Of a stretch of 64,000 nt of DNA, positions 62,330 to 64,000 are shown piece after piece. Where the stretch lies: NCBI RefSeq assembly GCF_003334785.1, contig NZ_QOWV01000007.1; one strand, 5' to 3'. The position numbers and the translations under genes are program-made. Under the pieces are notes generated by a model. That model searched no databases and was not told where the DNA came from. It saw only the letters and a program-made list of their open reading frames with translations. Origin of the DNA: Escherichia coli (lineage in GTDB: Bacteria; Pseudomonadota; Gammaproteobacteria; Enterobacterales; Enterobacteriaceae). The first letter of the stretch is position 1; every line of letters starts with the position of its first letter.

Positions 62330-64000
62330 GTGGCGCAGGCAGGTTTTATCTTAACCCGACACTGGCGGGACACCCCGCAAGGGACAGAAGTCTCCTTCTG
62401 GCTGGCGACGGACAACGGGCCGTTGCAGGTTACGCTTGCACCGCAAGAGTCCGTGGCGTTTATTCCCGCCGATCAGGTTCCCCGCGCTCAGCATATTTTG
62501 CAGGGTGAACAAGGCTTTCGCCTGACACCGCTGGCGTTAAAGGATTTTCACCGCCAGCCGGTGTATGGCCTTTACTGTCGCGCCCATCGCCAATTGATGA
62601 ATTACGAAAAGCGCCTGCGTGAAGGTGGCGTTACCGTCTACGAGGCCGATGTGCGTCCGCCAGAACGCTATCTGATGGAGCGGTTTATCACCTCACCGGT
62701 GTGGGTCGAGGGTGATATGCACAATGGCACTATCGTTAATGCCCGTCTGAAACCGCATCCCGACTATCGTCCGCCGCTCAAGTGGGTTTCTATAGATATT
62801 GAAACCACCCGCCACGGTGAGCTGTACTGCATCGGCCTGGAAGGCTGCGGGCAGCGCATCGTTTATATGCTGGGGCCGGAGAATGGCGACGCCTCCTCGC
62901 TTGATTTCGAACTGGAATACGTCGCCAGCCGCCCGCAGTTGCTGGAAAAACTCAACGCCTGGTTTGCCAACTACGATCCTGATGTGATCATCGGTTGGAA
63001 CGTGGTGCAGTTCGATCTGCGAATGCTGCAAAAACATGCCGAGCGTTACCGTCTTCCGCTGCGTCTTGGGCGCGATAATAGCGAGCTGGAGTGGCGCGAG
63101 CACGGCTTTAAAAACGGCGTCTTTTTTGCCCAGGCTAAAGGTCGGCTAATTATCGACGGTATCGAGGCGCTGAAATCCGCGTTCTGGAATTTCTCTTCAT
63201 TCTCGCTGGAAACTGTCGCTCAGGAGCTATTAGGCGAAGGAAAATCTATCGATAACCCGTGGGATCGAATGGACGAAATTGACCGCCGTTTCGCCGAAGA
63301 TAAACCTGCGCTGGCAACTTATAACCTGAAAGATTGCGAGCTGGTGACGCAGATCTTCCACAAAACTGAAATCATGCCATTTTTACTCGAACGGGCAACG
63401 GTGAACGGCCTGCCGGTGGACCGACACGGCGGTTCGGTGGCGGCATTTGGTCATCTCTATTTTCCGCGAATGCATCGCGCTGGTTATGTCGCGCCTAATC
63501 TCGGCGAAGTGCCGCCGCACGCCAGCCCTGGCGGCTACGTGATGGATTCACGGCCAGGGCTTTATGATTCAGTGCTGGTGCTGGACTATAAAAGCCTGTA
63601 CCCGTCGATCATCCGCACCTTTCTGATTGATCCCGTCGGGCTGGTGGAAGGCATGGCGCAGCCTGATCCAGAGCACAGTACCGAAGGTTTTCTCGATGCC
63701 TGGTTCTCGCGAGAAAAACATTGCCTGCCGGAGATTGTGACTAACATCTGGCACGGGCGCGATGAAGCCAAACGCCAGGGTAACAAACCGCTGTCGCAGG
63801 CGCTGAAAATCATCATGAATGCCTTTTATGGCGTGCTCGGCACCACCGCCTGCCGCTTCTTCGATCCGCGGCTGGCATCGTCGATCACCATGCGTGGTCA
63901 TCAGATCATGCGGCAAACCAAAGCGTTGATTGAAGCACAGGGCTACGACGTTATCTACGGCGATACCGACTCAACGTTTGTCTGGCTGAAAGGCGCACAT
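62330..64000 (+). CDS. polB: DNA polymerase II (family B), 5' portion; runs off the window end
   Basis: From the GTG at 62330 the frame reads (V/M)[48 protein letters not shown]... with no stop to position 64000 (557 codons); includes the exonuclease motif DIETT and [13 protein letters not shown]; absent from the ORF track because it lacks an ATG and a stop. Confidence 0.9.

Follow-up and report, generated by a model that had tools for sequence, protein, structure and literature searches.

The last 1671 nt (positions 62330-64000) of the 64,000-nt stretch of Escherichia coli DNA analyzed here, referred to below as the window, almost certainly constitute the 5′ 71% of polB (dinA), which encodes DNA polymerase II (Pol II) of E. 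coli and is translated from a GTG codon at position 62330. The sequence is that of polB itself and not that of a polB relative, and it is of the K-12 type of E. coli. Knowledge of this gene, including the GTG start, the SOS regulation and the structure, dates from 1990-2009, and nothing new is gained for biology from finding polB at this position. The lesson is one for annotation: when ORFs are listed only if they end in a stop codon, genes truncated by the edge of a sequence are lost, in this case a gene for a polymerase of 783 codons, and yet a spurious ORF that overlaps it is reported. The two genes concerned are the following.

61560..62255, plus strand: araD (L-ribulose-5-phosphate 4-epimerase), the upstream neighbor (ORF listing; RefSeq annotation of the matching DNA)
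62330..64000, plus strand: polB coding sequence, codons 1-557 of 783, ended by the window edge (open frame, MG1655 nucleotide identity, RefSeq, PDB, NCBIfam, Pfam)

The right edge of the window contains the 5′ part of polB

As the first-pass annotation of this DNA had stated, the frame that starts at 62330 is open for 557 codons: upon translation, the frame opened by the GTG at 62330-62332 runs through base 64000 with 0 stops, and the other two plus-strand frames over 62330-64000 contain 22 and 26 stops. An arithmetic estimate, ~(61/64)^557, puts the chance of a stop-free frame of this length at about 1e-12. GC contents at the first, second and third codon positions of the polB frame are 0.63, 0.41 and 0.63, respectively. 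For the analysis of sequence variation, the window was aligned with seven E. coli genomes (L003-L009, including BL21(DE3), O157:H7 and ST131) at ~95-98% identity. Variable columns in the region 62330-63150 of these eight sequences are distributed 14/10/68 over the three codon positions of polB, and the variable sites of araD in the same alignment are distributed 4/0/20.

The polB frame is indeed missing from the ORF listing of 58000-64000, as had been claimed, and ORF 62227-62508 (93 aa, ATG start) is present in it. The omission of polB had been attributed to its GTG start together with the lack of a stop in the window. The second part of this explanation holds but the first does not, since the tool lists GTG-start ORFs. 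Both GTG and TTG starts are allowed by the tool, many ORFs with either start are present in the list, and ORFs extending past the end of the source sequence are left out. Hence, polB is absent because it has no stop codon within the window and not because it starts with GTG.

The assignment of the right-edge gene to DNA polymerase II, made previously from the letters of the sequence, is borne out by comparison with strain MG1655. No mismatch to MG1655 polB (codons 1-557) occurs in the 1671 nt (100% nucleotide identity), and the 74-bp araD-polB spacer is also identical. According to RefSeq, MG1655 polB (b0060, NP_414602.1) encodes 783 aa and is located at 63429..65780 on the minus strand, with araD 74 bp upstream and rapA downstream. 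The likeness to MG1655 polB/dinA thus consists of identical codons 1-557 and an identical 74-bp spacer, with a shared GTG start and LexA box, in the same araD-polB-rapA gene order; within the compared polB stretch, which ends with the window at codon 557, there is no difference. When 5426 complete E. coli genomes were searched by Megablast with region 61500-64000, the locus was detected in 5401, where it is annotated as araD followed by polB, "DNA polymerase II".

The last 226 codons and the stop codon of polB fall beyond the window. The thumb region and the beta-clamp-binding motif QLGLF at the C terminus belong to this part, and both are present in MG1655 past the identical 5′ part, the MG1655 counterpart ending in MTGQLGLF followed by the stop codon. 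With these final 226 codons lying outside the window, a disrupted or pseudogenized polB copy whose defect is located past base 64000 could be envisaged. However, the visible 1671 nt are identical to an intact gene, polB carries the annotation DNA polymerase II in the genomes whose sequence agrees at 100% with the last 24.5 kb of the window, and it is without a pseudogene flag in all ten records inspected and measures 2352 nt in the eight of these in which it is covered end to end. We consider such a defect extremely improbable; judged from the identical genomes, the polB copy of the source genome would be intact beyond base 64000.

The translated frame matches Pol II structures, families and catalytic motifs

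A protein homology search of the 62330-64000 frame, the check proposed along with the original assignment, returned the DNA polymerase II structures of the 1q8i and 3k57 series as best PDB matches (E=0), covering residues 1-557 and aligning from residue 1. Over these residues the window protein differs from 1q8i by one substitution (I428 in the window versus V in 1q8i), and the 3k57 chains have three additional N-terminal residues as compared with it. The next PDB matches are archaeal Pol B, eukaryotic Pol alpha and Pol delta, and gp43 of phage RB69, with E values of ~1e-31 to 1e-13 (best 6.5e-31). Archaeal and eukaryotic family-B polymerases (Pyrococcus/Thermococcus Pol B, Pol alpha, Pol delta) and gp43 of phages RB69 and T4 share with Pol II the exonuclease and palm/fingers core and the motifs Exo I-III and Pol A-C. 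Unlike these enzymes, Pol II has N-terminal and insertion domains of its own (PF21474 and PF22587), and it is an accessory polymerase induced in the SOS response and not the main replicase (PMC2680738, PMC6590174).

Family profiles gave concordant results. The NCBIfam equivalog NF004420, "DNA polymerase II", aligns query residues 1-557 to positions 1-557 of its 783 with a score of 1283 bits. The curated cut-off of this profile is 1435 bits; the 557-aa product stays below it because 226 residues are missing, and the full-length MG1655 protein, with 1795 bits, is above it. Alignments of three NCBIfam Pol II profiles begin at query residues 1-3. Pfam domains were found for DNApolII_N (PF21474, aa 5-40, E=8.6e-22), the DNApolII insertion (PF22587, aa 41-101, E=4e-27), DNA_pol_B_exo1 (PF03104, aa 199-296, E=1.2e-7) and DNA_pol_B (PF00136, aa 380-555, E=1.2e-20). 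A lack of similarity to family-B DNA polymerases had been named as the outcome that would speak against the assignment; PDB, NCBIfam and Pfam instead all match Pol II or family B.

Family-B exonuclease motifs had also been reported for this frame. Exo I, Exo II and Exo III could be located at aa 154-160, 220-230 and 331-339, respectively, and all six catalytic motifs (Exo I-III and Pol A-C) are found in the translated frame:

62789..62809, plus strand: Exo I motif SIDIETT (DxE; D156 and E158), aa 154-160
62987..63019, plus strand: Exo II motif with NVVQFD (Nx2-3(F/Y)D), aa 220-230
63320..63346, plus strand: Exo III motif YNLKDCELV, aa 331-339 (Yx3D = YNLKD, aa 331-335)
63581..63610, plus strand: Pol motif A with DYKSLYPS (DxxSLYPS), aa 418-427
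63806..63841, plus strand: Pol motif B with KIIMNAFYG, aa 493-501 (Kx3NSxYG, with Ala in place of Ser)
63953..63973, plus strand: Pol motif C IYGDTDS (YGDTDS, aa 543-548)

Of the features that define family-B polymerases and the Pol II equivalog, the predicted product displays all those that can be read from the window. Pol II consists of a single polypeptide and is a family-B DNA polymerase equipped with a 3′-5′ proofreading exonuclease. Polymerase and 3′-5′ exonuclease activity are described in the literature on the identical K-12 protein (PMC2680738, PMC6590174), and Pol II has been characterized as a B-family polymerase with 3′-5′ exonuclease activity whose expression is also RpoS-dependent (PMC6590174). 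A literature search on the residue numbering of the exonuclease-deficient allele (D155A/E157A, polBex1) found nothing.

Translation of polB starts at the GTG codon at 62330

The elements around the start of polB are listed below.

62315..62317, plus strand: TGA in the polB frame and, in this strain, its upstream limit, 12 nt before the GTG
62318..62321, plus strand: TGGA, putative weak Shine-Dalgarno-like element, 8 nt before the GTG, conserved in 8/8 sequences
62330..62332, plus strand: GTG initiation codon of polB, the first ATG, GTG or TTG after the in-frame TGA, present in 8/8 aligned sequences and the RefSeq start in 10/10 records

Sequence, annotation and structures together establish that translation starts at GTG 62330. 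Between the TGA at 62315-62317 and the GTG there are only the codons TGG ATT TTC AGC. In strains that have TAT at 62315 the frame is shut upstream by a TAA at 62297-62299 or 62264-62266, and no start codon lies between (alignment inspected by eye). The GTG is kept in all eight aligned sequences, with the RefSeq start of polB at this codon in each of the seven genomes, and in all ten E. coli records whose RefSeq annotation was inspected, MG1655 among them, polB begins at this GTG. In addition, the PDB chain 1q8i begins MAQAGF..., matching the codon at 62330.

The next in-frame start candidates are a TTG at codon 32, a GTG at codon 42 and an ATG at codon 90, and translation of a genuine polB from one of these has in its favor that GTG is a minority start codon and that TGGA is a weak ribosome-binding site. 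However, no downstream candidate is preceded by a better Shine-Dalgarno context. Codons 14-31 contain nine third-position changes, of the synonymous type, and one at a first position, and residues 1-31 are identical in 8/8 sequences. Codon 14, where the third-position changes set in, is located well ahead of the next candidate start; nucleotides 1-41 of polB do not vary among the eight sequences. Over codons 1-89 the variable sites are distributed 4/2/20 by codon position in the eight sequences. Moreover, the Pfam domain DNApolII_N spans aa 5-40, the three NCBIfam Pol II profiles align from residues 1-3, and the crystallized protein begins MAQAGF. Based on the substitution pattern and on domain and structure coverage we rejected the downstream starts, which we regard as very unlikely.

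With the start at GTG 62330, the TGGA at 62318-62321 may serve as a weak Shine-Dalgarno-like element, as its sequence and position suggest, and a weak ribosome-binding site combined with a GTG start would fit a low basal abundance of Pol II. Bonner et al. (1990) reportedly cloned the gene with the help of N-terminal sequencing of the purified Pol II protein. A literature search for polB in combination with GTG, start codon or initiation codon yielded nothing relevant to the start of E. coli polB.

ORF 62227-62508 is not a gene

The only other ORF bearing on the start of polB is the following.

62227..62508, plus strand: spurious 93-codon ORF (ATG start) over the end of araD, the spacer and the start of polB; frame 1 (polB, frame 2)

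The first-pass annotation had described this ORF as spurious and as lying in a frame different from that of polB. The frames do differ (frame 1 versus frame 2 for polB), and the evidence obtained supports the remainder of the statement as well. A genuine small gene of 93 aa overlapping the end of araD and the start of polB would be in keeping with the ATG start and with the 93 codons being open in six of the eight aligned sequences. The other two, however, are each cut short by a premature stop, L004 at codon 34 and L008 (O157:H7) at codon 20. The pattern of variation likewise speaks against a gene: the 18 variable sites in the overlap with polB split 14/2/2 by the ORF's own codon positions (8 sequences), and as its position 1 corresponds to position 3 of polB, the 14 of 18 sites at that position are the signature of polB third positions. 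Furthermore, the ORF matches no NCBIfam family, is without RefSeq annotation in the records inspected, and runs across the terminator hairpin and the LexA box described below. On the grounds of the variation pattern, the premature stops and the lack of an NCBIfam family and of RefSeq annotation we rejected it as a gene, and the chance that it is one appears negligible.

The araD-polB spacer contains a LexA box and a terminator hairpin

The 74-bp spacer (62256-62329) contains, in this order, a LexA operator and a terminator hairpin, and probably also the -10 element of polB:

62259..62274, plus strand: LexA (SOS) box of polB/dinA, CTGTATAAAACCACAG (CTGT-N8-ACAG pattern match; invariant in 8/8 sequences)
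62285..62315, plus strand: G+C-rich hairpin followed by a T-run, intrinsic terminator after araD (RNA fold; both arms invariant in 8/8 sequences)
62295..62300, plus strand: probable -10 hexamer of polB, TATACT, situated in the hairpin loop

Exact matches to CTGT-N8-ACAG occur twice in the 64-kb window; shuffled sequences contain 0.88 matches on average, and two or more in 20 of 100 shuffles, so that two matches do not exceed what chance would give. The other match, CTGTTGCTGTGCACAG at 52484-52499, has a spacer that is not AT-rich and, on this sequence evidence, is probably not a LexA site. The sequence at 62259-62274, CTGTATAAAACCACAG, is also the LexA motif given for polB by a UV tiling-array study, in which UV induction of polB is reported as well (PMC3009722). 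The operator places polB in the SOS regulon. The polB gene is allelic with LexA-regulated dinA, and the level of ~50 Pol II molecules per cell increases approximately sevenfold upon DNA damage (PMC2680738).

The hairpin, formed by 62285-62313 and followed by the T-run, folds with -19.4 kcal/mol (z = -6.3), and none of 200 shuffled sequences was as stable. We read it as the intrinsic terminator of araBAD. In a promoter/terminator scan this hairpin was reported for the minus strand only, and Rfam, applied to the entire window with gathering thresholds, detected no RNA family in 62256-64000.

According to the tiling-array study, the UV-induced polB transcript starts ~46 nt past the first base of the LexA motif, which is near 62304, this being an approximate tiling-array start (PMC3009722). 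The loop of the hairpin contains the hexamer TATACT in the window and in L003 and the consensus TATAAT in the other six of the eight sequences; neither the stem arms nor the LexA box show any variation. A sigma-70 consensus scan of 62100-62500 called no promoter, the polB promoter being missed because its -35 is weak. Taking into account the TATAAT variant, the approximate transcript start and the work of Bonner et al. (1990), the polB -10 is probably the TATACT in the hairpin loop. Bonner et al. reportedly found that the LexA site, two nucleotides after araD, overlaps the -35, with which a -10 in the terminator loop would agree. The araBAD terminator hairpin and the putative polB promoter are interleaved, the -10 hexamer being positioned in the loop. 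An mRNA initiated at such a promoter would have its first nucleotide in the 3′ arm, so that the hairpin would not form in the polB transcript and would not terminate it.

It seems doubtful that the interleaved arrangement and the TATACT/TATAAT polymorphism have regulatory consequences. If they did, expression of polB might be coupled to transcription of the arabinose operon via read-through or promoter occlusion, and basal as well as SOS-induced Pol II levels might vary between lineages through TATACT/TATAAT alone.

Insertion between araD and polB in three genomes

In 3 of the 5426 genomes, E. coli SCU-301 (NZ_CP051751.1, L010 1568-3044) and two others, a 1.4-kb AT-rich insert is present between araD and polB. 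It contains three hypothetical genes on the opposite strand, encoding 147, 88 and 110-116 aa. The usual LexA box of polB is swapped in these genomes for CTGTACAAAATATCAG, located just upstream of the conserved hairpin, and with the insert comes a different araD terminator. NCBIfam, PADLOC and PHROGs gave no match for any of the three genes. The sole result of a Pfam search with the 147-aa and 116-aa products was a weak match of the 147-aa product to SMI1_KNR4 (SUKH-1; E=0.0097). Going by this weak match, the insert may be an orphan immunity-gene islet.

The araA-araD repeat array and other features of the window

The spacer between araA and araD contains a tandem array of the REP/BIME type at 61111-61546, consisting of 5.1 copies of an 85-bp unit with 98% matches. 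This spacer measures 454 bp in the window versus 284 bp in MG1655; the additional 170 bp correspond to two extra units. Four units of the array match Rfam naRNA4 (RF02564) just above the gathering score, and the array gives rise to a ladder of spurious minus-strand ORFs with TTG starts at 85-bp spacing.

Region 39500-64000 of the window (24.5 kb, including the 5-copy array) has a 100% match in a single piece in only 3 of 5426 complete E. coli genomes. The assemblies concerned are labeled Stbl4, XL10-Gold and TOP10; in other K-12-like genomes the match breaks at the array. The strains TOP10 and Stbl4 are described as Delta(ara-leu)7697, but the assemblies labeled as such carry ara-leu, so that labels and genotypes may not match.

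Other Rfam matches in the window are located at 4927-5040, 16315-16981, 22628-22717, 44218-44367, 50347-50573 and 52330-52429. The families at these six sites are tp2, two copies of naRNA4 plus STnc40, PssrA, the Leu leader, SgrS and the TPP riboswitch, all of which are expected for this region of the K-12 chromosome.
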